Below, piece by piece: positions 170 to 48,069 of a stretch of 64,000 nt of DNA. Made by a program: the position numbers and the translations under genes. Within the stretch, counting starts at the first letter, position 1. The number at the start of each line of letters is the position of its first letter. Below the pieces are notes generated by a model. That model was given only the letters and a program-made list of their open reading frames with translations, searched no databases and had not been told where the DNA came from. This DNA comes from Lama guanicoe (taxonomy: Eukaryota). The stretch lies in contig MU053652.1 of the NCBI GenBank assembly GCA_013239625.1, forward strand, positions 5,819,902 through 5,883,901. Direction: 5' to 3'.

Positions 170-345
170 TTAGGCTACTCTGCATTGTAGCATTTCTCAC
201 ATCAAATTGTGATATTGTTTTCACGTTGTGTTATTTACTGTGAGTGCCTCAAGACCAGGGACAGTGTCTTCTTCATTTTTGTATCTCCAGATTCCAACAG
301 AGCACTCGGCGTGTAGTAAGCACTCAGTCAATGCTCTGTGAGTGA
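170..345 (+). mobile_element. L2 LINE 3' end fragment
   Basis: tgtgagtgcctcaagaccagggacagtgtctt...gtagtaagcactcagtcaatg resembles the recalled L2 3' terminus. Confidence 0.7.
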
Positions 346-609
346 TGGTGGGCATGCCTGGGTTCATGGGGAGAAGAACCCTGCAGGATATCCTTTTGAG
401 AGGATAATAATGAATGAAATCTCTGTCCAACCTAAACCAGACCAAAACCCATTTTCCTAAATTATTCAGCCCTGATGATGTATACCTTTGGAGTTCATGT
501 TTTAATTATACTACCTTACCTGCTGATGCAGTTTAATTATGTATATGGAAGAGATTTAATGACCAAGGAGACAATTATGAGATAATAGCAAAGTATAATG
601 AGTCTACTT

Positions 610-790
610 GGCTGTTAGAATTGGGGTCTTGAGGTCTGCACTTGATTCCTTCCTAACTGTGTGATCCTGGGGATAGTTTCCTCAACATAAACATTAGTTT
701 ATGATGTTTAGCCTACTTATTCAATAACAGTGGGATATTATGAGGGAGAGATTAGATGTTAAAGCATGGTGAACTAGTATTTAATATGCC
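610..790 (+). mobile_element. MIR SINE (degenerate)
   Basis: taactgtgtgatcctgggg...agtttcctca...tgggatattatgagg follows the MIR core. Confidence 0.5.
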
Positions 791-954
791 ATTGTTATTA
801 GTATTTTCCATTTGTTCTAAAATTGATTTTTAGTTAAGGAAAAGGTAATAGGGTTCATTTCTTTTGTGTATGGGGAGTCTCATACCTCAAGTTATTAATT
901 GTCCTCTATTTTGATTAAAAGCTAGTCTAAAATTTATTTTAACAGAAGTCCTTA

Positions 955-2045
955 AACTCCTGCAGTGCAATAACAAATCCCAAATAACCCAATTTAGAAA
1001 TGGTCAAAGGTCTTAAATAGATATTTCTCCCAGGAAAACATACAAGTGGCCATTATGTATATGAAAAGGGACTCAACATGGCTAACCATCGGAGAAATGC
1101 AAATCAAGACTACAATGAGGTACCACTTCACACATGTTAGGACGGCAATTATCAAACAAACAAGCACACAAGAACAAAATATAGCAAATGTTGGCAAGGA
1201 TGTGGAGAAAATGGAACCCTTGTTAGTTGGAATGCAAAATGATACGACCATTATGGAAAATGGTAGAGGTTCCTCAAAAACATAGAAAAATGGAGCTGCC
1301 ACATAACCCAACATTCTCACTGCTGGGTATTTATACAAAAGAAATGAAATCAGGATCTCCAGGAGATACCTGCACTCCTCTATTCTTTGCAGCGTTACAA
1401 TAGCCAGGATGTGGAAACAACCCACAGGGCCATTGACATGGATAAAGAAAATATAGAATGTCCTTGAAATGGAATATTATTCAGTCTTAACAAAGAAGGA
1501 AATCCTACTGTTTGCAATAACATGTACTATAGCCTGGAGAACATTATGCTGAATAAAATAAGCCAGTCTCAGGAAGACAAATGCTGTCTGGTTTTCCTTG
1601 TATGAGGGGTCTAAAGCAGTCAAACCATTGAAGCAGAGACAATGGTGGCTGCCAAGGGCTGGGAGGAAGAGGAAGTGGGAAGTTGTTCAGTGGGTGTAAA
1701 GTTTCAGCTGTGCAAGAGGAATGAGGTCCAGAGATCTGCTCAACAAAGTAGTGCCTATAGTTAACAGCACAGTATAATGCACTTAAAATTTTAAGAGGGT
1801 AGATCTCGTGTTAAGTGTTCTTACCACACATGCACATGTGCGTGCACATGCACACACATACACACACACAAAGAGGACACAGGACACAGAGAAACTTGGA
1901 AATGATGGATATGTTTGCTATCTTGAGTGTGATGATTATATCTTAGATGTATGCATATGTCCAGACTCACCAAACTGTACACATAAAACTCATGCAGGTT
2001 TTTTTTTTCAGTATATCAATTATACTTCAATAAAGCTGTTAAAAG
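955..2045 (+). mobile_element. 5'-truncated L1 (ORF2 C-terminus + 3'UTR; old L1MA10/L1MB-like)
   Basis: ORF 1046-1285 encodes EMQIKTTMRYHFTHVRTAIIK, the L1 ORF2 C-terminal motif. The 3'UTR ends in caataaagctgttaaaa. Degenerate TSD: agaagtccttaaa (~944-956) / agagtcctttaaa (~2057-2069). Confidence 0.92.
1825..1870. repeat. CA/TG alternating purine-pyrimidine microsatellite inside the L1 3'UTR
   Basis: cacacatgcacatgtgcgtgcacatgcacacacatacacacacaca. Confidence 0.85.
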
Positions 2046-2854
2046 TTCTTTTTAAAAGAGTCCTTTAAATAACTAAAATGTAAGATGGCTTGCTACTAAA
2101 AACATATCAATTCACTCCTCTCTTCTTAGTACTATTTGAATCCAAGAAGTTAAATATGTATCTATATTTTTAACCTTCATATATCTCGAACAAGTAGATC
2201 AAATCCTGCTGTGGAAAATTATCTTGCACTATCCAGAGAAACACAAGTACTTGCATTTGCTTGAAAGACTGGGTTTTAAGTGCTTTTGGTGCTTTATTTT
2301 TGTTCTCTGAAGTCCACTTCTTAGCTTAGTTCCTGTTGTACATTGGTTGTGACACAACTCTTGCTCTGAAGTTATTCAGAGAAAATAATAATGGTCTTTT
2401 AGTTGTTAGTTCCTTCTTCTTTAGATCAAGAATGTTGGTCCCCCTTGAGTATCTGTTAAAATGCTGCTTTGAGTAAAGATCAGTGATTGAAAGTCAATAT
2501 ACAACAGAATTCAGGTAATGCTGATAAGTAGGCTAAGGTATTGAGCCTTGAGTAGAAGAATGTTTAGTTTTCAAGCTCTGATAGCAGCTGTTGAAATACT
2601 GTTGAGAGTGTCCTATTTGCTAAAGGTATTTGGAAATGACTTTATGTTGTATACAGATATAATAGCTTAGATGCTGAGATGCTTTTCCTTTTCCTGAATG
2701 ATGGTATATTTCATATGTAGATATGCTTATTATCTCTTTATTAGATCATTCCACTATATCATGAAATAAGAACCTCTTGTCCATTCACTTATTCATCCCA
2801 TGTCAGATGAATGCCTGCAGGTATCAGGGTTCACAAGACCCATAGAGCTCACTG

Positions 2855-2970
2855 AGATGTGAGCTCTATGAAGTCAGGGACCTACTCTATACTATTCACT
2901 GCTGTAGGCTCTGGATCTAAAAATTATCTGACATGTAATAGGTGCTCAATAAGTATTTGTTGAATGATTG
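2855..2970 (+). mobile_element. L2 3' end fragment
   Basis: tgtgagctctatgaagtcagggacc...taggtgctcaataagtatttgttgaatga. Confidence 0.75.
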
Positions 2971-3774
2971 AAGAAGAGTGGATGCCACAAATGTCCACTC
3001 TTCCCTCTCACTAACTTAACTGGCATGATTCTGTGATGCATTCCTCATCTGTAACTGAATTACTAATTTTTAATCTGTAACTGTCATGAGCTTAATGCAA
3101 AGTTCAATACTATCTTTTTCCTAGTCCAGAATGGGTAAGAAACTTAAAGAGTGCTCACTTTGATTCCAGTGGTCATTGGCATGATGATTTTTCTAGGTAA
3201 TGGGCTGGAAAATATGAGATTTCTCTTTTCTTAGAGAGTTTGTTCATATTGGGCATTTGAGCATTTACAGGGAGTTAGTTTCATCTTTCGTCACCTTCCT
3301 GTCCTATTGTTGGCGCCAGTATCTGGGAATCTACTTGGAAATGGCAAAAACAGACAAAACAAAATAAAAATCCTCCTCCTCCTTCTCTTTCTTCTGCTTT
3401 TTTGGATTTCTTTCTTTTCCTGAATTTCCCCCACCGACTGTACTCATGCCTCCTTAGATATTTCCAATTTTTAGGATGGGGAAGAGGCAACACATTAGAA
3501 GTTTACTTCTAGTTGTGGTGGCCACGAGTTTCCCTTCTAATTAATGTAGAACCTTCTGTAGTTCACGTCTTCATTGCTGGACTTTCTAATAAGAGTTTTT
3601 ATTCTATGTACATCTGGGGAATGGAATTTGAGGTGTCTGGAATTAATGTTATAGGTAAATATTGCACGGTGAAAGTGAGTTACCATTTCTGTTTGGCGTT
3701 TGTCAATTTTGATTTTAAACAATTTACAACTAATGTGTCTTCTGAGGAAAAAATTAATCTGTTGAGTAATTATT

Positions 3775-3955
3775 TAATCCCTTCACAGTAACCCATCTGG
3801 AAGATACTAGCATCCTCTCAGTCTTCAGATTGGGGCGCAGAGGCACAGAGAAGTCACATAACTTACCCAGCATCACATAGCTAATCAGAGAAGGGCCAGG
3901 ATTTGGAGCCAGGAAGTCTAGCCTCAGAGGTGACATTCATAACCATCATACCACT
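3775..3955 (-). mobile_element. MIR SINE
   Basis: gaggcacagagaagtcacataacttacccagcatcacatagctaat...ggatttggagccagg is the reverse complement of the MIR core. Confidence 0.8.
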
Positions 3956-4668
3956 GTGTGCCTGTGAGCATGCATTTGGATCCGAGATGAGATGTGGCCA
4001 TGTTAGAAAGCCTAGGATGTATGGAGACTGACCCTATGAGCCTATCCCAGCCCAGTCTGTCTCCAGAGCATCAGCATCTCTTTGAGAGGACACACAGAGA
4101 CAGGCAGGAGAGGGGCTCTCTGGGCCAGTCCTTTCCATGCTGGATTGTCCCTGTTGCCACTCTTCAGGGGACATATTGAGGAATAGCATGGGGCTCATGC
4201 TCCCTCTGTACCAGGAGTTTTATTCCCTCATTTCATTGCTTTTCAGAGTCCCTTTAAGGGTGCACATGACATTGGATAGAGGGAAAAGCATAACATGTTT
4301 GGTGGGGGTGGGGAGACTGAGCACAGATTTAAGTGCAGTTTTGCTCTTTTAATCCATGTTGTTAAAGATAACGCTTTTTCTTCACTGTGATGTGGGAGAT
4401 AAATCCTCTCTTTCACAAAATGCACTTGAAGCTGACAAACAAACACACTTTCATCACGTTGTGCACTTTTCTGCTAAGTCCCAGTGGTACACCCACATAA
4501 GGAGGCGAAAATACTGTTACAAGAGGTGTGATTACACTTATTCAGACCTTAGAACAAATTTTACTGAACCATCACTAAAGGACCAATTACATGAGGCCAA
4601 ATTGTTATTTTATTTATGTCTCCAGAAAGATGGGAAGAAATGATGTCAAGGGTAATTAGGCAGAAAGT

Positions 4669-5438
4669 TGTGACCTTGTGATATATAATAAGAAGTACGT
4701 ATTTGGTCTTTATCCAGTTTCTGGCACAGAGCTCCTAAAACCTTGGATTTACTCAGTGATGACAATGATAAATTATCTTTAGTTATTTTAACGTGACTTT
4801 GGGAAAACCTGTAGTTAGGGGTGGTTATCAGAAAAACCAACCAAGGGATTAGAGGGTTGGAACTTTCAGTCTCATCCCCCAACCTGCAGAGACGGGAGAG
4901 GGGCTGGAGGTTGAGTTCAGCCACCAGTGGCCAATGATCTAATCAACCTTGCCTATGCACCAAAGCACAGGGTTTGGAAAGCTTCAGGGTTTGTGAACAC
5001 TTGGAGATTCAGAGAAAGCAAAGAAGCTCTGAGCCCCTTTCCCTTGCCCTGTGCATCTCTTTCATCAGACTGTTCCTGAGTTACATCCTTTTATGATAAA
5101 CCAGTGATCTAGTAAGTGAAATGTTTCTCTGAGTTCTGTGAACCATGCTAGCAAATTAATCAAACTCAAGGAGGGTGTTTTGGCAGCCTCTGATTTATAG
5201 CCAGTTGAGGTCAGAAGCCCAGGTAACAACCTGAGCTTGCGACTGACATCTGAAGTTGGTGGGGGCAGCCTTGTAGGACTTGGATCCTTAAACTGCGGAA
5301 TCTGACAATCTCCAGGTGGATAGTATCAGAATTGAGTGGAATTTTAGGATACCCGGTTGATGTCTGGAGAATTGCTCAGGGGTGGTGGTGAAACTCCTCA
5401 CTCTCAATGAATTGGAGTTGAGATCCAGATACTTTTCA
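4669..5438 (+). mobile_element. Solo LTR, MER21-like
   Basis: Starts tgtgaccttgtgatatataataagaa...ctggcacagagctcctaaaacc. Internal gattagagggttggaactttcag and gatagtatcagaattgag match recalled MER21. Ends in CA; near-TSD aagt/gagt. Confidence 0.85.
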
Positions 5439-6299
5439 GAGTTAACATATTTCTTCTGTCTTTAAGAAAAACAACAAAACAAAACACACCAATTGGTTAT
5501 TTGGTTTTGCTCATTGCTATTATTTGAAGATGCATTCATAAGAAATAATATATATAATAGTTGACTAACTATATCACATTTCTATTAGGGTAGATTATAG
5601 GCAATTTCTATGGTCAGCCAATAATTTTGACCAATCATTTTTTTTAACAATAGCCTTAACAATTAATAAAATGGTAACTTCATTGATTTGTGTATGTATC
5701 AAAACCAGTCTATCGTGCAGATCTAGCAAGTTATACAAAACCAGAGGCTTGATCTGACGTATTTAAAACTTAACATGACAGAAATTGTTAACCACCTTGA
5801 GACACTGGTAATAATCATGTTATTTAAAGAAAATCACATTCAATATTCTATACACAGTTTTGTAAGTAATTTCATTCTAATAATTTAATCCTCCTCAATT
5901 TCCATCACAGTTGGAAGTTGGTATTGTGACATTGTTTCTTGTTTTTTCTTTTTCTCTTTCTACATTATTGATAAAGATTTTGTTCTTAAAAATAAGCAAC
6001 AACTAAAAACACGATCTTTTTCCCTTTTTGCTTTAACAAAGCTTCTCTGTTGAAATACAGGGAGTTCTAGGATCCTAGTTCTTTTATCTGAGCTGGCTGC
6101 AATTCCACTTTTGTACTGTTTGTATAGGTTGCCTTTCTTTGTGCAGTAAGTCCTCTTTGAAGAGAAGTTTTGAAATTAAACAATGACATTTAATTAATCG
6201 TTTGGCTTGTGCTATCATTTCGGAGATACAATAACTTCAGTTCTCTATAAATCTCAGTTCTTATATATGGTGAGTCCCCCTTTGGGTTCCCATTCAGTG

Positions 6300-6575
6300 A
6301 AGATACTGTTGCCCTTGCCTTGTGGTGGGGCTGCACTCTAGGTCCTTGAAGGATGGCCTGGCTGCCGAGAGCTGTCTGGCCCCCATCTAGTGACTGATGG
6401 ATGTGGAAGTATAATGGGCTGACCTACCTGACCTAACATAGAGCAAGTCTGAAGGCCATGCTAGCCTCCATGTGGTCCTGGGAGTTTGTCACTGGACCAT
6501 AGCCAGCTGGACTTCTCCTCTACCCAGTCCTGCTTCCTTCCCTGGTCCTCCATCAGGTGGAGGCCAAGGGCAAAT
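6300..6575 (+). mobile_element. ERVL LTR fragment (LTR16-like)
   Basis: GC-richer block with ctctacccagtcctgcttccttccc, similar to the recalled LTR16 family. Confidence 0.45.
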
Positions 6576-7764
6576 ATTTCAAACTCCTAAGGCTGCCATA
6601 ATATTGTCTTAACATTTTATAATCCAGCCTCTTAATAATCTGTAGACAAATGTTTAAATAAAACAGCACATGTGATTGTTTCCACAACTTTTGCTTCTTA
6701 ATCGTTGGCACCATTAATTGATTAATAGTTTTTTTTAACCATACTATTATTCTTTTAAAGAATTAAATTCTAATTTTCAACCCAGATCCTCAAAATGTTT
6801 ATAAACTCCCTCCGAAAGGAGACTTGGAATCCTTAAAGTGGGAATTAGGGGATCACAGAAGAGAATGGAAGTAACTTTTTCCCGTTGAAAGAGCCCAATC
6901 ACATTGTGATGACCAATAATAGGTGAAAAGTGAAATCTAGTCATCTGACTTACTGGCATAGACAAGTGGGCAAATATCATGTCTCAGAATTTAGGACATT
7001 TAATAATGCTGTACAAAAAAAATGGTAAAGGGTTCAAGAATATGACCTGTTGACAATCCCACGATTTAGGTCTGAATACAATCGTCTCAGCTCAAGTTTG
7101 GTGATGATGTTTTCTGTTTATGAGGATGATGATTATTAGTGATGGTTATAATGTACGACATTTGTATAGGACTTAATCATTTTATCCTTTTAAATTTGAT
7201 TCTCTTAACATCCCTGGGAAACAGTTGCTATGAACCATGTCACAGAGATGAGGACACTGAGAGATGAGAGACTTGTTCAAGGTCACACAGGACCACCTGC
7301 ATGTATTCTGACCCAGGTGTGTTTTCTTCTTCACTCCCACGTCTTACTGCACGAGCAAACCAACACACATGGAAAGGGCCTTTTGTTTCTCAGACCTGAG
7401 ACACTAGGCTACTCACTCATGAGGTAAAGAAATAAAAGCTATGAATGGAATTGTTTATAAATTTGCTCTTGCATCAGTAAGAGCAAATTATTGTGCCACC
7501 CTACAGATGAACAAACTAAGGCCAAGGCGGTATTCTAATTTACTGCACCCTGATAATAACTATTTTGGGTGGCAGAGGCTATTTCAGTGAAAACGTCCTC
7601 TGAATTTTGATGCTCCAAAATTGTTTTAACTTTCTTTGTGACAGTTTTTAAAAAAACATATTTATATGCATCTTTTTGTTTCCTTACTTGACTGAAAAGT
7701 GTTTGATGGCAGAACTGTCTCATTTCTATTTATATCAGCAGTGCCTATTATAATTGCATTTATT

Positions 7765-8010
7765 AATTCAACAAATGTTTATTGAAATCTCTATGGGCCA
7801 AGCACAGTGACAGGTATTGGGGCTGTGGCGGTAAATGTGAAAGACAAGCTTCAGTAGTCATGGTGCTTAGAGTCTAGGGTCAGAATAAAGAGTAACAAAG
7901 TTTTTAAAATATACAATTACTGTGATTGTTGCAGCGGAAAGGTGAAGTGGAAGACTAGAGACCTCAGGAAAATTTTCACGAGGACATGCATTTACAGGGC
8001 CAACTGAAAA
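7765..8010 (-). mobile_element. L2 fragment
   Basis: attcaacaaatgtttattgaaatctctatgggccaagcacagtg is the antisense L2 3' end. Confidence 0.65.
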
Positions 8011-8254
8011 TTTTTGAGGATGCAATAGGTATATACTGAAGTTTAGGTCAGTTCTATAATCTACATAAGTTCTAAGTATCTTAACTAAGTTCTTTATGTT
8101 CTATAGAAGTACTGTATTTGTGTAGCTATCAATTAGATTTATAAGGGAGGACACATTGGCTCTTTTAAATGAGTCTTTAAATTTGCTTTATCTTATTCAT
8201 CAATTACGGATAGCCACTAAACCATTAAGCATAGGTATAGCCCACTATGAATGA

Positions 8255-9569: not shown

Positions 9570-10060
9570 CTAAAGCATACAACTCATCATGTAATTCTCC
9601 TGCTTCTGAATTTTCAGTGGGTTCCCATTGTGTTCAAGATAAAAATCCAAATTATTTAGCATGTCTAACAAAGGCATTCTCAAGCTGCTCCTGCCCATCC
9701 TTTCCAACCTCTACCCCGGCCAGTCTCTACCATAAGCCACATCAAGCAAGGTTCTTCCATAGCTTGGCCTCTACCAGAAGTACCCCACTTTTGTCCCTGT
9801 GTGGACATCCATGTATATTTGCCCTTTAAAATTCAACTCTCTCGAGCACTTGAGTTACTCCTTCCTCTCTGCTCCTATTGTGTGGCAGATTCTCTTAATT
9901 CTAAAATTTATTACATATTCCATGATAATTTACTGGAATGCCTCTCTCCCAGACTAGATGCTAACTGTTGGATTAGCCTGTGCATCCTCAGTGTCCAGCC
10001 CAGTGCATAGCATATAATGGCACCCAGTAATGTTTGGGTGACTGAACGCATTGTGAATTG
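9570..10060 (+). mobile_element. L2 3' region
   Basis: cagtgggttcccattg...ataaaaatccaaat...tctctccagactagatg...cccagtgcatagcatataatggcacccagtaatgtttg. Confidence 0.65.
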
Positions 10061-37319: not shown

Positions 37320-38679
37320 TAGCCTTTGGCTTCAAGAAATCATTCTGACTGGGGAGATGGTAAATGCCATCGGGGAATAAATGGTTTGGTGGATGTTGCA
37401 AAGGGAGCACAGAGGAGGAGTATCTCAGCCTGCGGAAGATCATGGACCTTACTTGGGGGAGATAAAACTTGAGTAGGGTGTCAAAGGAGACGTCAACCAA
37501 GTAATGGAAAGAGAAGCATCCTGTGCAGGGGAAATGTCACATTAAAAGAAAAGAGAAAGAGTATATGGGTCTGGGAATAGCACTGACTTAAACATGGCTG
37601 GAAAATCTGTTTCCCATGAGAGAGTGGCTGGTGTGGCTACAGAAGGAAGGCATCTGCCAGAGCACAAAAAGGAGTTTCTAGTTTGTCTTAAGGTGATGAG
37701 ACTTCATTAAAGGGTAATATGGGTTGATGAGATTGGAGACAAGGAGATCCATTAAAAGCTTAATATCATAATTCAGATGAGAGGCGATAGTGTCTGACCT
37801 AAGGCAATATCCATAAAGGGAGAATGGAAAAGACATTTTTGATAAATTGTTGGTGATTTATTATGCATGACACGACCAGATGATAGTTTACTTGATTCTT
37901 TTATTACGGCAGTCTTAATGAGATGGATTGGATTGCTGAGCAACTGATTGTGTAGATGGTCCACATGGTGCATTTTGACCATGATGGAGAACATGTAATT
38001 GCTTGTTCATAGCTATAGTCATTGCTTAAATTGGACTGCTATTGGACAAAGTTTCCACAATTATCCCATTGTTTCAGGGCTATACCATCTCCAAGAGGTT
38101 TTCACAGTTGTCTCTATAAATATCTCAAACTCTGTTCATTTGTGTAGGTAAAAAAGTGTATACTGTTTACTGCCTATTTAAATTCTTACTAGTATTCTGG
38201 GCCTTTAATAATTTGTCTTTGTTATTATTTTTGAGATTTTTTGACACCCACTAAAATATTTTAATATATCTTGAGTTGTCATAAAGCTAAGTTTGAAAGA
38301 TGCTGATTTATAATGATAATATCTGTGGTGACTCAGGAAAAGAGGCACTGGACATCTTAATAAACAATTTAATAGAATCCAAATAGATGACACCCAATTA
38401 CTGACAAATAGATTATAAAGAATAATAAAATACTTGGCTACTTTGAGATTTGAAGACATCTTTTACAAGTTGGAACAACCTGAAGATTCATAGAATTTGT
38501 GTAAAATGTGTGGTTGTCAATACATTTCAACACGTTGATTCTGTTGTGGAAAGCCTGTAACATGAAGTGTTTAATGGTTATGGTCAAAGTATTTCTATGT
38601 TTATGCAGTCTGCAGTCGTAGGAGGGAAGTGTATGACTCAGAAAGAACATTGGTCTAGAGAAGCTGACCGCAGCCAGGG

Positions 38680-38880
38680 AGTTTGGAGTGAAACAGACAG
38701 GATTTGGGATTCTGACTCTTCTAGGATGTGAACCTGGATGGACAGATTCACCTCCCCGAGTTTGTCTTTCCTCATGTGTAATGTGGGATAATATTGCTTT
38801 CCTTACAGGGTTGTTTTGAGGATTACATGAGATAATGCAAGTAAAACACTCAGAGTGTCTGGCTCATAGCATGTTCATGT
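38680..38880 (+). mobile_element. MIR SINE
   Basis: tttggagtgaaacagacagga...tttcctcatgtgtaatgtgggataata...cagggttgttttgaggattacatgagataatgcaagtaaa. Confidence 0.85.
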
Positions 38881-40219
38881 TGGTGAAAAAAATCAATCAA
38901 TAGTCAATCTATAAAAAGAAAGGGAAGTTTTTGAGACAAGGGGTTATATGTCAAGTGCCATATTATTGACAGTTTACACAATTCAAATATACACATACAA
39001 AGCAAGCAGTAGGTCATGGGTCATGTGACACCTTGCAAGATTAAGCAGGAGAGTTATCTTCAACAGCGTTGTGACCCTCTGTGAGATTAAGAACGTTATT
39101 TCCTAAGGAGGTCTGGTTAATTCAGATGTACAACACACACTAAAGGGAAGATAGGAGGTCCAAATGGGCAAAGAAAAAATTTATGTTTAAATTTTTCTTG
39201 TCTTGCCATAAAATATAAATTATATTTCATCACTCAGTATAAAAATGATAGCAATTACAAAAAAAATTAAGAGTCAAGATTCTAGTTGCAGCTCAGCTAC
39301 AAATCCATGATTATCTTTGACAAGTCATGTTTTCTTTCAGGGCCTGAGGCTCCTTATCAGTAAAAGGAAGCAGGTGGATTGGATGAGTTCTAAATTTGAT
39401 GATCAGAGTTGGGATTTGATGACCAATATGAGCTACGTCTGAATTTTTGTCGTCAGAAAATGTATCGTTTAAAAAGTTGCAATTTACCCTGAGTCATGCA
39501 CCCCTGCATGGGCACTGAGAATATATTTAATCTAGGCAGATTTAGAAGCTTCGGGATGACACGTTGATTTTGAAAGCATGCTAGATATTCAGGGGAAGAA
39601 CTCCATGAGGTAGTTAGAGATCAAACTCAAAGAAAAGGGTAGAACTCTAAAAAACATGGGAATTTAACAACGCAAATGATACTGAAGGAATGAAAGTGAC
39701 TGACAATTCCTTAGACACAAACCAAAAAAAAATATGCCGGCAAATTTCACATTTTTATTTATTTAGTCATTTATTTTCAAATATTCATAATAGGGGTAAC
39801 TTGGTAACTCATTAAGAAATCAATGCTCAACTAAAACTGCTTATTATCAATTGCAAAAGTTTTACAAAATACAGACTTAGAAGGAATATAAAGTTTTGAA
39901 AACAATTTGAATTTTTACGTATTTTTGTTATGATAGTTAGCAAATGTTTGACCTATTTGGAATAAATGAGGCCAGTTATATTTTGAGAGATTGTTGAATT
40001 TTGTATGTGTCTTAGCCAGATAGGTTGCTGCCAGGTTGAGAGCCTGGATGTAGGTAGTATATTGCTCATGACAAAGACAACTTTGGAAAACTTTGAGATC
40101 AGAAACAGAGAGATTCACAGTTTTGGCTTATTTACCCTCAGTTACATCTAGTTAACATGCATTAATGCTGTTTCTCTGCTTATACTCCATATGTGTGTCC
40201 AGTTGGAGAGGCTGAGGAT

Positions 40220-40420
40220 AGAACATGGTAGCTGGGCATTTGACTCTCGAGCTGGACTTCCTAGGTTCAAGTCCTAGCTCTGTGACGTTGGGAAAGTGAT
40301 TTCACTCTCTTAGTGTTAGTTTCCCCACATGGGGTGTAGGGATAATAAGACCTGCCTTATAAGGCTCTGTGAGAGTGAAATTAAATAATACACAAAACAC
40401 TTAGGCTAATACCTTAATAT
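40220..40420 (+). mobile_element. MIR SINE
   Basis: cctaggttcaagtcctagctctgtgacgttgggaaagtgattt...gggataataagacctgccttata. Confidence 0.8.
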
Positions 40421-41921
40421 ACAGTTTGTAAGTTGGTTTTCCCCTCTCAGTTATTAAAATAAGTTTTGCTTTTACCAAGCCCCAATAAAAAGTTCTATAT
40501 CTTAAAAAAAAAACTACTATGCTTAGTAGATTTGCTCATCTACAGAATTTTTTAAAAATGCAGTGAATGTGGTTGTTTTTAATTGACTTGTCAGTTTCAT
40601 TAAAAAGCCAAATTGACTGCATAGTGCAGACACAATTTAGGTTGAAAACTACTCCTCAGTGAAAGTTATCAAAGGTGAAACAAAGGAGAAGGAAGCTACA
40701 CCTATACAATTACGTGTGTATATACACATGTGTGTGAGTGTGCACACATGCGCGTGTGTGTTTTAAATTGTAGTAGAAAGCCTAAATAGCTAGCATAATA
40801 CTAGGCACTTGTTAATTATTTGGTAGGCTCTCTTTATTAATAAAAAATTAATTTTAAGTTTTTTTGTTTGTTTTCTACAATCTGAGTGCTTGGTACTGTG
40901 TTTAAAAAAAAGGAAATTTTGCAAAAGTTATCTTAGTTTTCTCTCTCTGAAAACTCTGACATATGCTGATGGATATAGATTTTCATTTTAAAAATTAAAG
41001 AGGGGCTCAAATGAGTTTAGTTATTTTCTTTGGTGATGAAACGCTCCCTGGAGGTGGACCAAGAAGAGTGCTAAATCTTTGATGCACCCGTGTAATATAT
41101 GCAGTACATTGCTGAGAATATCTGGTTTTGAGGTTTCAGTGGCAGAAAACCAACTGCAGGAAATCTGGATATTCTAGTACAGCTCTGACCTTAAATGTTT
41201 CATCCACTGAAAAGAATAATGCACGGTTTCAAAAATGTTCACGTGGTCCCATAAGAAGGTGAGGATTTTTTTCCCCCTTTTCTATACAACTTTAATTACA
41301 CTGTACTAAACAAGTTAAAGCAGTAATGCCACCTTAATTTTCACACAGAGGGCTTTTTAGTTAGAGTGCTGCTACTTGAGATGATCTAAACAGAATCTTA
41401 GCAGTTTAAAGAATTAATGCTCCTAATATTCCTTTTTGGTGCTGGGAAGTGGCCCCCCTGGAAGACGAGCAGGTCTGGACTGAAGACGCTGTGAGATGGG
41501 AATAGCTTTCTTCCTCCATGACCCCATCCATGTAATCTCTTCCTTCCCACACCTCCTCAGCACTTCAGAATGAAGAGAAAAAAAGAAAAAAACAGGAAAG
41601 TAGGAAAAAGAAAGATAGGTAGAAACAGCCCTTAGAAGAGTTTGCTCATCTTCAAGATTAAGGACAGAGAGTTGAAATTTTCCAACAGCAGCAGAGCTGC
41701 TTTCCTTCCCTCCATCCTGTGCAAACCCAAAGACCGGGAACAGAAGCAGGTTTTCATGACAAGCCACAGGCCAAGCACCCAGGTCATTTGGAGACCTAGA
41801 CTGGTTTATTCGCTGAGTGTCATTTGGTGCGGGCTGTCAGCTGGCAAATGCTTCATGCAAGGGATTCATGAACATAGCACATCTTATGAATCTTAAGTAT
41901 TAGAAGAGGTTGAGTTTATCT

Positions 41922-42550
41922 CGTTATCGAACCGAATTTGGGTCTGCTCACCCAACACTTAGCAAAGCCAATCTACTGACACCAGGTGGTGAAGGAAAGG
42001 ACAGAGTTTATTGAAGGGCCAAGCAAGGAGAACAGGCAGCTCATGCTCAAAAGACTCGAACTACTTGATGGCTTTTAGAGACGGGTTTTTAAAGACAGGG
42101 TGAGATGGGGTACATGATCAGCTCATGCACAGCTCTCTGATGAGTTAATGGTGAGGTACCAGGATGTTGTTTTGGGAATTTCAGTCATCAGCCTTCTCGT
42201 TCCAGTTGGTCTGGGGGTCTACTTGCTGGTGGTCAGCATGCAGTTCACTTTTTGCACCTGGTGAGGGTTTTAATATCTACAAAACTGCTCAAGGATATGG
42301 CTCAGGATATTATCCATAGCCCTTGAGGAGAAATCGAAAGTCCTTGACATTGTTTTATGGCTAAATTATTATTATTATTATGTCTTGCTTGGCTGCTTTC
42401 CTTTGTTTCTGATTTTTTTTTCACTTCCCTGAATATATTTTCTCTTTGGAACTTGTGGAAGGCCTAGGAGGCTAAAGCTTTTCTGCAAACAAGAAGCAGA
42501 GGGTATAGAGGGTCTATCTCCAGGAAGGCTCCACAGAGTTCTTGATTTCA
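41922..42550 (-). mobile_element. ERV1-class solo LTR (~630 bp; subfamily not determined)
   Basis: Termini (c)gttatcgaacc ... gatttca. On the - strand a TATA-like ctttaaaaa lies at ~42086-42094 and AATAAA at 42007-42012. Resembles a recalled laurasiatherian ERV1 LTR. Confidence 0.8.
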
Positions 42551-43143
42551 TCATGATCAACCACAAAATTGTCTATTTAACACTTCCTCTTTTAAATAAT
42601 AATTCTAGTGTTTACTGTGGACAAGTCTAATTATCTATAATGCTTAGGGATGAATTTAACTTTACTTCTACAAATCATTTTCCGAAGACAGCCTTTCCTA
42701 TACATTTTTAACAGAAAATACACAAAATAGCTTCCTAACTCCACTTTTGTCACACACTGGCAACCTCCTTAACATCTAGAAAGACTTGATGTCATCTTAG
42801 GACTCATTTGTCCATTATATACACAGCAAAGTAAAATGAAATGCACAGAACATATAGGACCATGGTTAATCTTGTTTTACTATAAAAATAGCTGAACTGG
42901 GGCCCCTGCACTGCCGCCTTCTCCCTCGTCCCCTGAACCGGTGCACACACACAACTGCATACCGCTCAGAGGGTGCTTTGCCCAGTCCCTTTCCAAATGA
43001 CAAAGTTCATGTGAATCTTAACAAAAGGATATTTGTAAAAATGTGTTATTTTACTATCTCTCCCTTAAACATAAATCGGGACCTTGATAATATCTAGAAA
43101 GATTAGATATTTCAAAAAAGTACTTAGCATGGTTCACTGTCTA

Positions 43144-43204
43144 TTTTGGTGTGAACTTTTAAATTCTATTTTCTTAGCAAATTTCAATTGTACAATATAG
43201 TGTT
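43144..43204 (-). mobile_element. ~60-bp L1 3'UTR scrap inside the NORAD retrocopy
   Basis: - strand aacactatattgtacaattgaaatttgctaagaaaatagaatttaaaagttcacaccaaaa resembles the L1 3'UTR motif tgtattgtatacttgaaatttgctaagagagtagatcttaa. Confidence 0.7.
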
Positions 43205-43426
43205 TGCTTTTAAGAAGATGTGGGTAACTTGAGAACACCTGCTTCCTATTACCTACTATAAATGACCAGTAGGTCCTCCCAGAGGCTGGTGGGCACTCCA
43301 TGTTAACAGGCCAAAAGTGGATTGCTGTTTCTACAGTTTTCCTCCTCCAGTGTCAAGGTCTGATGGAATAAAGACTCCGGCCAACATTTACACTCTCTGC
43401 TCCTCCCAGGCTCCTTAAGGGGTGGG

Positions 43427-43468
43427 CTGGGATGGCATCTTGTTCACTGGGATGGCATCTTGTTCACT
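43427..43468. repeat. Perfect 20-bp tandem duplication
   Basis: ctgggatggcatcttgttca x2 (43427-43446, 43447-43466) plus ct. Confidence 0.95.
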
Positions 43469-46281
43469 AGGGACACGGGGCCACCCCAGACCCAGGATCT
43501 GTGTGGCTCCATGGCCTGAGGCTGAGTGGCCGAGCTCAGGCCCTTTCTGGTGTCTGGGCGCTGCCATTCTTCTTGGCCCTTTCCTGGGGCCCCAGGGGCT
43601 CAGCTCTGCCCGCAGAGCTGGAGCCAGAGACCGGAGACCCCCATGGACCGTGTAGGGTAAGATCATAGGAGGATGGGCTTGCTGCTGCTTCAGGGCCTGG
43701 GCTTGGGCCCACAGCTCACCCAGGCTTGGAGGGTCGAGGCTGACCTCCACTAATGACCCCCATCTCTGCTAGAACTCCTTTATATTCACATTTTATTTTT
43801 TCTCTGATTAACATTTTAAGATGGGTAAGTATCCTTGGGGTCCTGATTATATGATACTTCTGCTGCAAACTGTTACTAAGATTGAGACTCTTTATATAAC
43901 TACTTTTAGATGTATTGTTGATTGATTACGTCTCTTGAATTCCATTTAAGGAGATGTCCCTGGTTTGCACAGTGCATCCTTTCTAGTACAGGTGGATGAT
44001 AGGATTTTGTCCCCTCGGTTTCTTGCCTTATCTTTGTCTCTCTTTGCATCACCTCTGTTTCCTGTCCTCCCATCTCTGTTCTCTGACTTTCCTCTCTTCC
44101 TTTTACTCCTCTCGTTTCTCTGTTAGCATTCCTACCCTTCTCTGTTTCCCTGAACCTTTTTTGACAGGATCTTTTTCCCTCACTTCTCCCTTTAATCTCT
44201 CTTTTTTCTAATACTGCAGTATAGAAAGAAATGCAGAGAATTACTAGGATTTACTATATTACAGAGACTTTCTGTTCTTTTTCCTTTACCAATGATTCAT
44301 TACTTGAAAATATTGACATCAATTTCCAGAAATTCATAAACGTCTCCAGTCAATGCATCTAAATTTCAAATAAACCTCCAGTGGTTTTGGTAAGAAAGTG
44401 CCCAATTTATTACTTTCCTTCATTTCTTGTAAATCACAGTGATGAGAGTTTAGAACAAAGCTGCATCGGGACACTGTGAGAAATCAGCCTATGCAAATGA
44501 GGTTTTTATTTCCTTAGAACCCATCATACTAGTGACTCAAGCTGGTTAAAACTCACTGAATGGTTTAGTTCCTGATGTTTCAGTACTGCCTCCTTATCTT
44601 GTATCAAAAGTATAGCACTGATGGCTTCTTTGGAGTTCTTTTAGCCATAGAAAATCGTACACATCTGGAAATATGTAAAGGAGTCAGTATGTCTCAACTA
44701 AGATTTTATAACTGCATGCTTTTTAGAGAGATCAAAATATCCAGGAGGCTGGTGTCTCCTATCATTTAATATCGCTGTGATAATAGTTATACACAGGGAC
44801 CTCAAATCATGTCATTTTGGGGGCCAGATCTTTAATTCTTACAGAAGACCTTTCCAGGTGGTAGTCACCTTAGAAATACCATTGTGCTCCTTCCATATAA
44901 ACAAGTAATTCAAAATGATCAAAGGCTTACATATAAGGTCTAAAACTATAAAACTCTAAAGCAAAAGTTCCAGAAAAAGGGCATAGAAAAAAATGAAGGA
45001 GAGGCAATAGCCAAATATATAACAATAGAGAATAATCTGGATGTATAGAACAAAATGAGTCCTAAGACTGAAGGGACAAGCAAGTCCGCTTGGATATGTA
45101 ACAGTGAAAATGTGAAATGCAAAGACAAAAGGAAATCTTTCAGCATGACAAAGAAAAAAGACATTATCCATGATGGTACAGCAGTAAGACTAACAGCAGC
45201 AGAAAAATATTTTTTGAATGTTGAGGGAAAAATAAGTTATAAATCTCTATTCAAACTATCATTCAAGAATAAAGGGAAATGAAGATATTTTATGTCATGT
45301 AAAGACTTAAGAGAGTTTGCCTCTTAGACTTTTTGAAGGAGCTGCCTACTTTAAAAGAAGGAAATTCATTCTAGAAATAAACAATGGAGTGTGTGTAAGA
45401 AGCAATGATTTTCTTAAAGTGGCTAGCATTGGTTTTAAATAAGGTGGAAATAAAGCTCTAGATGACAGTGATGTGTTTGACGGGCTGGAATTAAGCCTTC
45501 CTAAATCCCTTACATTGTTCAGAAGAAATATAAAAATATTAATTATCCTAACACATCATCATAAAATTGTGCAGGTTAAAAATGTAAGGCTAAGAATTCA
45601 AAGAATAAAAGTACAATTATAGCTTAGAAATCCCAAGAGGTGTAAAAGTATGTGTGCTGTACTGAAAAATTATCAGTCTGATGGGAGGGAGAAAAGGAAA
45701 AAAAATGGTAACAACCAAAAGGATGGTAAATAGACATAAATTGGTAGAAATAGATGTAAATATCAGTAGCTACAGTAAAACTCAACCACTAAAACCCAGA
45801 AAATCTCAGAGTGGATTAAATGTAAAATCTAGCTAAAAAGTAGCATATTACACACAGATATCACTTATGTGTGGTTGTATATTTATGTATGTCTATGAAT
45901 ATGTATATATATCACATATTAAAAAGAAAAGTGGTATAGTAAATTAAAATCAGAAAAAATAAACTTTATTGTAAAGTATTAGTAGCAATTAAGAGAAATG
46001 TAAATTAATAAAAATTATTCATCAAAAGATATGACAATTATGAACTGAAATGAACTTAAAAAGCAAAAAGCATAGTAAGATGAAATGAACAAAACTATAA
46101 TCCAAATGAAATTGTTAACACATGTCTCAGAAATTAATAAATTAATCAGACCAAAAATGTTTAGAAAGGAAATGGAAGATTTGAATAACTCAGTTAACAA
46201 AGTTGATCTGACAGATTTGTGTATACAACTGCACACTCAATAAATGTGAACGTCGGTTTTCTTTAAGCATGCTGAATTCAG

Positions 46282-46520
46282 GGCAGTCTATTGTGGAGTC
46301 AGAAGTTCAGTCTCTGGAATTTCAGTGACTAAATCTGAATCTTAGCACCACAATGCACTAGTTGTGCTGAGTGGTTAAGTTACTTTATCTCGCTATGGCT
46401 CAGATTCCTCATTTGTAAATTATAGGTAATATTAGTATTTAGGATTTTTGTGAGCTTTAACAAGTTAAAACATATCAATTGTTTAGTGTATAAAACATGG
46501 TAAAAATCTGACCAATGTGA
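46282..46520 (+). mobile_element. MIR SINE within the old L1 region
   Basis: tctctggaatttcagtgactaaatctgaatcttagc...ggctcagattcctcatttgtaaattataggtaatattagta. Confidence 0.7.
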
Positions 46521-47857
46521 GTTGGCATTTTCATTGTATAACACTGCAATAAAAGTAGCACAAAATTCCATGAAATAAATTCAATAAAATTAGGCACCAA
46601 TTATAAAAAATAGCCCAAACTCTCCCATAGAGCTGGAAATTGAAAAATAGGCTCCTAAATAATTCATGAGTCAGTGAAGAAAGTAAAATAGATATCATAC
46701 AATATTTATAATTGAGTGACAATGAATATTGTACATACAATAACTTCTGGATGCAGTAATCACTTAAAGGGGAGTTTCTAATTATGAATGTATATATTAG
46801 AAAATAAGTCATTTAAAAATAAATGAATGGGGATTCAACATAAGCAGTTAGAAAATAAACATCAGAGAACCTACAAGAGAATGGGAGGAGGGGAGTCATA
46901 TGAAAAGGAACACACAGCAATAAAATAGCAAACGAAAACGTTAGAGAAATTACAAAATACAAATAATGCTTTTTTGGAAAGGATCTTAAATTAGACAAGC
47001 CCATGGTAAAACTGATCCTTAAAAAAAGGCACACAGAAGCACATATAGGCAATACAAGGAATTAAAAAAAGATACATTTTAAGATCTAGTGAAGATTTTT
47101 AAATCCTGAGAGAATATTCTGACCATGTTATGCCAAGCAACTTAAGTAACTTGCCATCTTAGACTAACTGAACAATTTTCTAAGAAAATATAAATTTCTG
47201 TTATCAATACAGGAAGAAAGAGAAAATCTGAATTTAATAGTAACAATTTAAAACATTAACTTGATCATAAGAATGCTGCCTCTTCCTGAATGATGCATGC
47301 TGTCAGTATTTATTTTTGCTAGGTCCTAACCTATGCAATAAGACAAGAGACACATATAAGAATTAGATAGTAAATAACGCAGTTATTGTTTGCAGATATA
47401 AGTGTATTTGTAAGAAAATCCAAGAGCATTTACAGACAGACTTTAGAAGTAATAATTTCATTGGATATAAGAATTATTTCAGAATCTTTTAATACTATAG
47501 GAACAAACAGAAATGTCATTACATTTTTAAAAATTTCAAAATGCAGTAATAGCTGTAAGCTACCTGAAAGATATCTGGTTAATTAATTTATTTTTGTACC
47601 TCTATTGCAAAATAGATTATAGAGCTCAGAAACTGACTGCATAGGAAGACAAATGAATGGTGGGATGGTATTAAAAAATCAATGTGGAGACAACAGATTA
47701 TTGATTATATAAAGTAATTTGCTATATAAATGGAAAAATAAAATGAATTAGGTTTATACCTCACATTTTAGAACAAAATAAAATCCAGACAGGTTTAGAG
47801 ACATCCACGTGGAAAACAGAATTTAAACAAATTTTGTAGGAAACATGGGAGAATACA

Positions 47858-48069
47858 TAGTTGACCTTTGTACAGTGTGGGCGTTAGAGGTGCAGCCCTC
47901 TGAGCAGTCCGAGACCCTATAACTTTACAGTTAGCCCCATGTCCACAGTTCTGCATCATGGATTCAATCAACTATGGATCACGTAGTATCTTAGTATGTA
48001 TTTATTGAAAAAAATCCACATATAAGTGGACCTATGCTGTTCAAATCCGTGTTGTTCAGGGGTCAACTG
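47858..48069. mobile_element. Tigger2-derived MITE (~212 bp) inserted in the L1
   Basis: TIRs tagttgacctttgtaca / tgttcaggggtcaactg. aaaaaaatccacatataagtggacc...ttcaaatccgtgttgttca matches the recalled Tigger2 end. Confidence 0.85.

Follow-up and report, generated by a model that had tools for sequence, protein, structure and literature searches.

An intron of GRM8 in Lama guanicoe carries a decayed copy of the lncRNA NORAD, and this copy is very probably a processed pseudogene (retrocopy) that lost its 3′ portion after insertion. It occupies positions 43776 to 42610 on the minus strand of the 64,000-nt stretch of DNA analysed (the window) and aligns colinearly with the initial ~1.65 kb of locus L016, a gene of ~5.1 kb in the same genome that is referred to below as the parent. 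The homology follows the NORAD RNA colinearly, is limited to the transcribed region, and lies at a site unlinked to the parent, a gene with known retrocopies.

The gene on the plus strand has ANF_receptor exons and a 7tm_3 exon that flank the window on its contig (C1339), and the 7TM exon shares 97-99% identity with mammalian metabotropic glutamate receptor 8. As GRM8 runs on the plus strand, the copy on the minus strand is antisense and intronic, which is how the preliminary description of this DNA had placed it. The parent is located on contig C55221 beside EPB41L1, so that the two loci are unlinked. Antisense is the commonly tolerated orientation for a processed pseudogene inside a host intron.

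The parent locus

Locus L016 was identified from its sequence features as the putative NORAD orthologue, on the basis of its CpG island, Pumilio site density, repeat units, AATAAA sites and the neighbouring EPB41L1. The CpG island forms the 5′ end, tandem repeat units recur every ~620-670 nt, and the Pumilio site UGUANAUA occurs 19 times on the minus strand, versus three times on the plus strand. AATAAA is present at parent positions t660, 3994, 4355 and 5085, the last of these ~5.1 kb downstream of the start. EPB41L1 sits 134 kb beyond the 5′ end of L016 and is the published neighbour of mouse Norad (Kopp et al. 2019, PMC6407921). CNBD2, the other published NORAD neighbour, was not found on contig C55221 in a PF00027 search (26 matches).

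Parent positions (t) were counted from the AGTTCCGG motif at L016 7566, the gene lying on the minus strand, and t1 is taken by us to be the first base of the NORAD RNA. A human RT-qPCR forward primer in Table 1 of PMC9520332 starts with AGTTCCGG, and the placement of the RNA start was inferred from this primer and from general knowledge of NORAD, not from reads of the species itself. The first human qPCR primer pair had no matches in L016 at up to 3 mismatches. In an ungapped Hamming scan of human primers, two of 16 combinations of primer and locus scored better than the shuffles; HCG11_F on L016 had 3 mismatches in 20 (5 in the best of 20 shuffles), and NORAD_R on L017 had 4 in 27 (6 in the best shuffle). 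For the second human primer pair (PMC9520332), the best sites were the expected ones, with scores not above those of shuffles.

Extent and composition of the copy

The homology between the copy and the parent opens exactly at the parent's AGTTCCGGCAGAG, with none in the promoter. In a chain alignment for which 200 nt of upstream flank were available on both sequences, the first 277 nt of the copy started at t1, equivalent to window 43776 (z 11.2; none of 300 shuffles scored as high), and the first 130 nt alone gave z 9.1, a score reached by 0 of 300 shuffles. The upstream flanks of the copy and the parent are unlike each other (z -1.1). Further along, window 43633-43207 corresponds to t361-788, with z 26.7 for the local alignment relative to 200 dinucleotide shuffles, and window 43144-42677 corresponds to t1127-1609, with 74.9% BLAST identity over 491 columns (E 1e-89). 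About 170 nt at the start are disputed between methods: a MAFFT global alignment takes another path and places the copy start at t168, with identity there at noise level. In a separate local alignment, the first 140 nt scored only z 4.3, with at least one of 300 shuffles scoring higher. At the lower end of the copy, window 42625-42330 resembles no part of the parent significantly (z ≤ 0.6). The G+C content is 56-64% in window 43400-43799 and drops to 27-47% in the block below.

A genome search with window 42550-43800 as the query gave 45 listed matches, including the window itself and a few loci matching only query 657-1184, one of which, on C55221, does so several times in tandem. About 35 of the 45 listed matches are short and confined to a 60-bp piece (query ~597-657), and the GC-rich part had no other genome match at that sensitivity among the matches listed. 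The rest of the 64-kb window contained no more NORAD pieces beyond three weak matches (E 0.001-0.008). Against Rfam, window 38000-48000 had a single hit, to mir-297, which at 30.4 bits falls below the gathering score of 90, so that no RNA family model is of help for this region.

The preliminary description had derived the segment from NORAD, with matches running from the first bases of the RNA through the GC-rich leader into the repeat units; the chain from t1, the leader alignment and the unit match bear this out, as does the NORAD anatomy of the parent beside EPB41L1. Its limits of 42610 and 43776 proved accurate, given the start at t1 and the loss of likeness below 42625, and the GC-rich island and AT-rich block that it had assigned to no known transposon family agree with the base composition and with the genome matches listed. 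The alignment to NORAD that it had suggested, here run against the parent from the same genome, was colinear.

Table 1. Features of the NORAD copy and its flank (window coordinates)
Feature	Position	Strand	Remarks
Leader-derived part	43205..43776	-	Parent t1 to ~790; GC-rich, CpG-depleted, numerous deletions when compared with the parent
20-bp tandem duplication, two copies	43428..43467	-	In the leader-derived part; parent alignment gapped there
~60-bp 3′-terminal piece of a high-copy LINE-like repeat	43144..43204	-	Later insertion
Part derived from the first large repeat unit of NORAD	42610..43144	-	Parent t1127 to ~1680
Sole surviving Pumilio response element (UGUAUAUA)	42816..42823	-	In the unit-1 part
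High-copy interspersed repeat	41923..42542		Flank, outside the copy; starts ~70 nt past the last secure NORAD homology

The copy contains 8 CpG dinucleotides versus 65 in the parent (CpG o/e 0.17 versus 0.82), and at this ratio it has no promoter-like CpG island. The 20-bp duplication listed in Table 1 is absent from the parent and postdates the insertion. The LINE-like piece occupies the place of ~330 missing parent nucleotides (t~794-1126) and has ~35 genome matches of 83-92% identity to query 597-657, among the matches listed. At six other loci of this repeat that were examined, the likeness stretches upstream for as much as ~370 bp and has a common 3′ end, with A-rich tails at three of the six; the name 'LINE-like' denotes a presumed affiliation of the 60-bp insertion.

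The repeat-unit part matches unit 1 of the parent best (321 bits in BLAST, versus 265 and 225 bits for units 4 and 2). Its MAFFT identity is 79% and its K2P distance 0.25; the divergence of the leader is ~0.6. The last ~65 nt of the copy align to other parent units, at the place where unit 1 of the parent carries a deletion, and it is this deletion in the parent that gives the old NORAD copies their shared BLAST stop at t1606-1609. One of the five Pumilio elements in the covered part of the parent (t737, 1124, 1229, 1447 and 1456) is kept in the copy, and the repeat unit's palindromic stems are still present.

Origin and fate of the copy

NORAD is a single-exon RNA (PMC7976429), and intron loss is therefore unusable as a test for a retrocopy. 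The segment from the last homology (42610) to the next repeat (42542) contains no A-rich tract, and the only A-rich run downstream, at ~42421, falls inside that unrelated flank repeat, for which a first look gave 2147 genome candidates, the 40 scored being 75-79% identical over query 79-698. The score of a candidate target-site duplication in the 3′ region was reached by 100 of 100 shuffles, at a divergence where decay would hide a true duplication, and that of a candidate beyond the flank repeat by 9 of 100. The 3′ two-thirds of the RNA have no counterpart at the locus. Because no poly(A) or target-site duplication is visible, the RNA route was inferred from the 5′ boundary, where homology begins at AGTTCCGG and not upstream. 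The earlier claim of a retrocopy is likewise upheld by the unlinked position and by other copies of the parent, which end at its poly(A) site.

The copy reached the 5′ end of the RNA, and the leader and first repeat unit (~1.65 kb) are still recognisable in it. In a remote ancestor, NORAD RNA would have been reverse-transcribed in the germline, most likely by the LINE-1 machinery, and the product would have integrated at a site that today belongs to a GRM8 intron, antisense to that gene. The divergence suggests an insertion age of roughly 80-100 million years, an estimate with a wide error. The 3′ two-thirds, the poly(A) and the target-site duplication would subsequently have been deleted or have decayed past recognition, and the breakpoint may lie where a later repeat inserted, 70 nt downstream. 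Like typical LINE-1 processed pseudogenes, the GRM8 copy is promoterless, unlinked to its parent and homologous to the transcribed region only; whereas those are typically 5′-truncated and carry poly(A) and target-site duplications, the GRM8 copy is 5′-complete and lacks its 3′ part, with neither hallmark detectable.

Truncation at the 3′ end runs against the habit of LINE-1, which usually truncates the 5′ end. Twin priming, which would have left an inverted 3′ part on the right of 43776, was considered and rejected: only six scattered, weak and non-colinear matches were found there, and window 43770-44700, the upstream flank of the copy, had a single genome match, namely itself.

The template itself may have been short. 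A NORAD RNA ending after the first unit, through premature polyadenylation or cleavage, would have yielded a copy that never exceeded ~1.7 kb, and such an origin would fit a copy that is 5′-complete and ends near a unit boundary, with an AGTAAA hexamer at window ~42622-42617 and a short A/G-rich run ~20 nt further on. The old copies L018 and L039 likewise hold little beyond unit 1, but L039 runs on into the inter-unit linker and L018 ends earlier, leaving no common 3′ end. Three copies seeming to stop near t1610-1680 had suggested a shared short isoform, an idea dropped because the three end at different points. As the parent is also without AATAAA near t1600-1750, no poly(A) is recognisable, and other old copies break off at many different points (L033 at t925, L038 at t957, L037 at t1258), which fits random loss, we consider a short template unlikely.

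Very unlikely, in our view, is the copying or capture of a piece of the NORAD locus at the DNA level, for instance as filler DNA at a double-strand break or within an old segmental duplication. In favour of such an event, the copy is 3′-truncated and shows neither poly(A) nor target-site duplication, and none of the 3′ hallmarks of retroposition is demonstrable. The homology nevertheless starts exactly at AGTTCCGG with none in the 200-300 nt upstream, and a random breakpoint would have fallen there only by luck. Moreover, the parent has given rise to many RNA-mediated copies, and just 1.2 kb was copied, to a place far away.

As for the fate of the retrocopy, its CpG decay, Pumilio site loss, indels throughout and divergence look neutral and suggest that it has been dead since insertion. 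With one of five Pumilio elements left and no CpG island, it does not have the make-up of a functional Pumilio decoy. It is most likely functionless, and at most its complementary strand would be transcribed passively within the GRM8 pre-mRNA.

Co-option of the copy, be it as a minus-strand noncoding transcript, as a residual module binding Pumilio or other proteins, or as a regulatory element of GRM8, is highly improbable. The persistence of one UGUAUAUA element and of the palindromic unit stems would agree with it, and four runs guessed to be RNA (X1-X4) contain 0.14-0.18 of the copy's words, although such small word shares are no evidence of expression or of the copy's presence in a relative. 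The sampled words of the copy amount to at most 0.18 in any RNA-labelled run, compared with 0.82-0.92 in DNA runs of the same organism, a weak kind of evidence. A CpG o/e of 0.17, the disappearance of four of the five Pumilio sites, the indels throughout, and the neutral-looking divergence in both unit and leader all speak against a retained function. There is only a slight chance that the copy is an exapted GRM8-intron element kept since before the radiation of the placental orders, affecting the processing or expression of GRM8 through minus-strand transcription or through being bound at its surviving unit-1 module, which may comprise the one Pumilio site and the stem-loops of the unit. In a more modest variant, the copy may be a dated fossil of ancestral NORAD states that the living gene has lost in this lineage. 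Two such states are present: a stretch of ~30 nt that closes unit 1, and the starting CAGAGAT motif, which is common to the copy and the human primer.

Chance likeness or an unrecognised NORAD-like transposon, for which only the AT-rich, low-complexity appearance of the lower block would speak, has a negligible probability and was ruled out by the genome searches, BLAST and the leader alignment (E 1e-89, z 26.7), the genome matches being the NORAD gene and dispersed copies and not a high-copy family.

NORAD copies in this and other genomes

At least 17 NORAD-derived loci are dispersed through the genome outside the parent. Two copies are 97.6-98.4% identical to the parent and end at t5107, 22 nt past AATAAA, and the young copies L040, L041 and L042 end at the parent's poly(A) site. 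The old fragments (L017, L018, L019 and L033-L039) resemble the GRM8 copy in being fragmentary, ~60-77% identical to the parent and broken by later repeats. Among the 14 loci compared, the GRM8 copy alone was traced to t1, the leader-start alignments of the others being equivocal. The 5′ ends of seven other old copies gave z values of -0.7 to 8.7 with arbitrary start points, and L036 was the only one of the seven with a plausible counterpart near t1, at just z 2.8.

According to Tichon et al. 2016 (PMC4947167) and Kopp et al. 2019 (PMC6407921), mammalian genomes contain numerous NORAD pseudogenes, whose abundance is credited to high germline expression (PMC4947167, PMC6407921, PMC7976429). Four human NORAD pseudogenes cited there show > 90% identity over > 4 kb. 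Human HCG11, which the preliminary description had rightly named among the known retrocopies, is given as 91% identical to NORAD, with Pumilio sites kept, and as transcribed (PMC4947167, PMC6407921; Mathias et al. 2021, PMC7976429). The GRM8 copy shares with the reported human and mouse pseudogenes that it is dispersed, intronless, retroposed NORAD RNA. In contrast to the human pseudogenes as reported, it is 1.17 kb long, 54-79% identical and restricted to the 5′ third, keeping one of five Pumilio sites and having lost its CpGs. No account of a NORAD copy in GRM8 was found among the papers listed in a literature search, which is no proof of absence.

The copy is a genuine genomic fossil, but an unremarkable one, of a type known to be common in mammals, and its biological weight is small, NORAD pseudogenes having been reported as numerous and this one being decayed. 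Relics derived from lncRNAs escape both ORF-based and repeat-library annotation, and NORAD reads or CLIP tags may be wrongly mapped to them; Kopp et al. changed their mapping because of mis-mapping to NORAD pseudogenes (PMC6407921). The series of copies in this genome, from 60% to 98% identity, shows continuous NORAD retroposition up to recent times, and the GRM8 copy, being old and 5′-complete, provides an outgroup-like view of the leader and first repeat unit of ancestral NORAD.

Position and genome-wide matches

The window, at positions 5,819,902-5,883,901 of contig C1339, belongs to a 2.05-Gb assembly of mammalian DNA and lies between the second and third ANF_receptor exons of the contig (see table), with no protein-family matches listed inside it. 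The 7TM exon showed 97-99% identity to mammalian metabotropic glutamate receptor 8, and the top named matches of the GRM8 exon (99%) were bovid, dolphin and raccoon-dog proteins. As plus-strand GRM8 exons lie on both sides of the window, the minus-strand copy (window 42610-43776) is intronic and antisense to GRM8, as the preliminary description had proposed. A weak Rfam match to mir-297 at window 40704-40778, probably a chance one, scored 30.4 bits (E 0.039) and so fell short of the gathering score of 90.

G+C content is 56-64% in window 43400-43799 and 27-47% in the stretch below. In a whole-assembly search with window 42550-43800, one C55221 locus showed four to five tandem matches to the lower block (query ~657-1184), which also matched a few further loci. 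The 60 bp at query ~597-657 had about 35 genomic matches (83-92%), and the GC-rich part had no other match at that sensitivity. This few-locus pattern rules out a high-copy transposon, in agreement with the earlier remark that the GC-rich island and AT-rich block fit no recognised transposon family; the tandem matches indicate kinship with a gene carrying internal repeats.

Features of the copy, its host gene and related loci
Feature	Location	Strand or orientation	Remarks
ANF_receptor exons	contig 5,535,845; 5,658,823; 5,948,680	+	
7tm_3 exon	contig 6,118,421	+	
LINE-like repeat, 60-bp 3'-terminal piece	window 43144-43204	same as copy	high-copy repeat, inserted in copy
20-bp tandem duplication	window 43467-43428		in copy's leader
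High-copy interspersed repeat	window 41923-42542		2147 first-look candidates; 40 scored, 75-79% identical
Intact NORAD-like gene, L016 (G000:C55221:3777500-3787400)	7566 to 2460	minus	CpG island, UGUANAUA elements, tandem units, AATAAA
L040 (G000:C6187:1388500-1392500)	1928-2172		98.4% to parent; short, 5'-truncated, ends t5107
L041 (G000:C5185:14347700-14351800)	1983-2109		97.6% to parent; short, 5'-truncated, ends t5107
L017 (G000:C3491:3328000-3337900)	~2387-8035		old near full-length copy, t~295-5082, 65-77% identity

The parent locus and its other copies

Parent positions (t) were counted from the AGTTCCGGCAGAG motif at L016 7566, taken as t1. The minus strand of L016 has 19 UGUANAUA elements (6830 to 2607) and the plus strand three. 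A CpG island covers ~6900-7800 (o/e 0.74-0.91), the units are spaced about 620-670 nt apart, and an AATAAA is present at 2482 (t5085). The band-4.1 C-terminal domain is encoded at only four genome loci, one of which lies on C55221, 134 kb past L016's 5' end and in the opposite orientation; its last exon showed 95-100% identity to band 4.1-like protein 1 (EPB41L1) in all named matches among the 120 listed. The neighbours of mouse Norad are given as Epb41l1 and Cnbd2 (Kopp et al. 2019, PMC6407921); EPB41L1 is a neighbour in both, and CNBD2 was not found on C55221 via PF00027 (0 of 26 matches on that contig). Human qPCR primers lent weak support to the identity of L016. A genome search with the whole parent RNA revealed no second intact NORAD and at least 17 dispersed NORAD-derived loci of about 60-98% identity. 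Its anatomy, the EPB41L1 neighbour and the dispersed copies identify L016 as the NORAD orthologue and as an active retrocopy source.

The shared end point of L040 and L041 is 22 nt past the parent AATAAA, and L042, another derived locus (85-88% identity), ends at t5103. The very young L040 and L041 indicate that NORAD retroposition continued until recently in this lineage. L017 is broken up by several insertions and has an extra unit fragment at 9734-9826 in the opposite orientation.

Alignment of the copy to the parent

The alignment to NORAD, run against the same-genome parent, was significant and colinear. In unit 1, window 43144-42677 corresponds to t1127-1609 (74.9% identity, E 1e-89), and the copy's repeat unit scored 321 bits against unit 1, 265 against unit 4 and 225 against unit 2. 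The last ~65 nt of this unit (to window ~42610) match other parent units, parent unit 1 carrying a deletion there; ~30 nt at the unit 1 end (window 42625-42665) are kept in the copy and other parent units and missing from parent unit 1. In the leader, window 43633-43207 corresponds to t361-788 (z against shuffled sequences, 26.7).

The first bases were aligned as a chain with long gaps permitted and 200 nt of upstream flank supplied for both sequences. The chain starts with t1 at window 43776 (AGTTCCGGCAGAG vs AGTTCTAGCAGAG) and includes ordered blocks at t49-61, t79-93, t167-184, t259-291, t349-361 and t439-457; the z values of 11.2 (first 277 nt) and 9.1 (first 130 nt) were not attained in any of 300 shuffles, and the upstream flanks showed no likeness (z -1.1). 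Against a start at t1, an earlier local alignment limited to the first 140 nt gave a z of only 4.3, and a MAFFT global alignment placed the start at t168, with identity there at noise level. The colinearity reported in the preliminary description stands for the leader and unit 1, and the chain extends it to the first bases. At window 43762-43768 the copy reads CAGAGAT, as in the published human primer, and the parent CAGAGCG. Window 42625-42330, below the copy, resembled no parent part (z <= 0.6), and no further NORAD pieces were found in the rest of the 64-kb window. The copy's 1,167 bp represent about 1,680 nt of RNA.

Origin, decay and age

NORAD homology, a 5' boundary at AGTTCCGG, a parent that is unlinked and spawns retrocopies, and neutral-looking decay are all shown for the copy; the first three uphold its earlier designation as a NORAD processed pseudogene. 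We take AGTTCCGG to start at the first base of the human reference NORAD RNA. A human RT-qPCR forward primer begins with the same bases (PMC9520332, Table 1), and on this primer and that assumption, AGTTCCGG would mark the first base of the RNA. The copy most likely arose by LINE-1-mediated reverse transcription of a NORAD RNA up to its 5' end, the 3' part presumably being lost after insertion. A twin-priming arrangement was not supported. Neither a target-site duplication nor poly(A) was detectable around the copy. The interspersed repeat begins about 70 nt beyond the last homology; an A-rich run near 42421 lies inside it. The LINE-like piece marks a point at which the copy lacks ~330 nt of parent sequence.

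The copy's leader retains 8 CpGs (o/e 0.17) vs 65 in parent t1-800 (0.82). Among the parent Pumilio elements in the covered part (t737, 1124, 1229, 1447 and 1456), one of five is kept, at window 42823. K2P distance to the parent rises from 0.25 in unit 1 to about 0.6-0.7 in the CpG-rich leader. The average mammalian substitution rate is about 2e-9 per site per year; with this rate, the unit 1 distance and a parental rate set at one third to one half of neutral, insertion is roughly estimated at ~80-100 million years ago.

Tichon et al. 2016 (PMC4947167) and Kopp et al. describe numerous NORAD pseudogenes in mammalian genomes, so the kind is already known; all that sets this copy apart from them is its age, its fragmentary state and a complete 5' instead of 3' end. 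A limited literature search turned up no report of NORAD sequence within GRM8. Sequencing runs X1-X4, which carry no organism label and are guessed to be RNA, contained 0.14-0.18 of the words sampled from window 42550-43800, a share that DNA of a relative, partial intronic RNA or low coverage could each explain. The copy is most likely inert. Judging from its sequence, the copy, itself dead, appears to have kept ancestral states now gone from the living gene.
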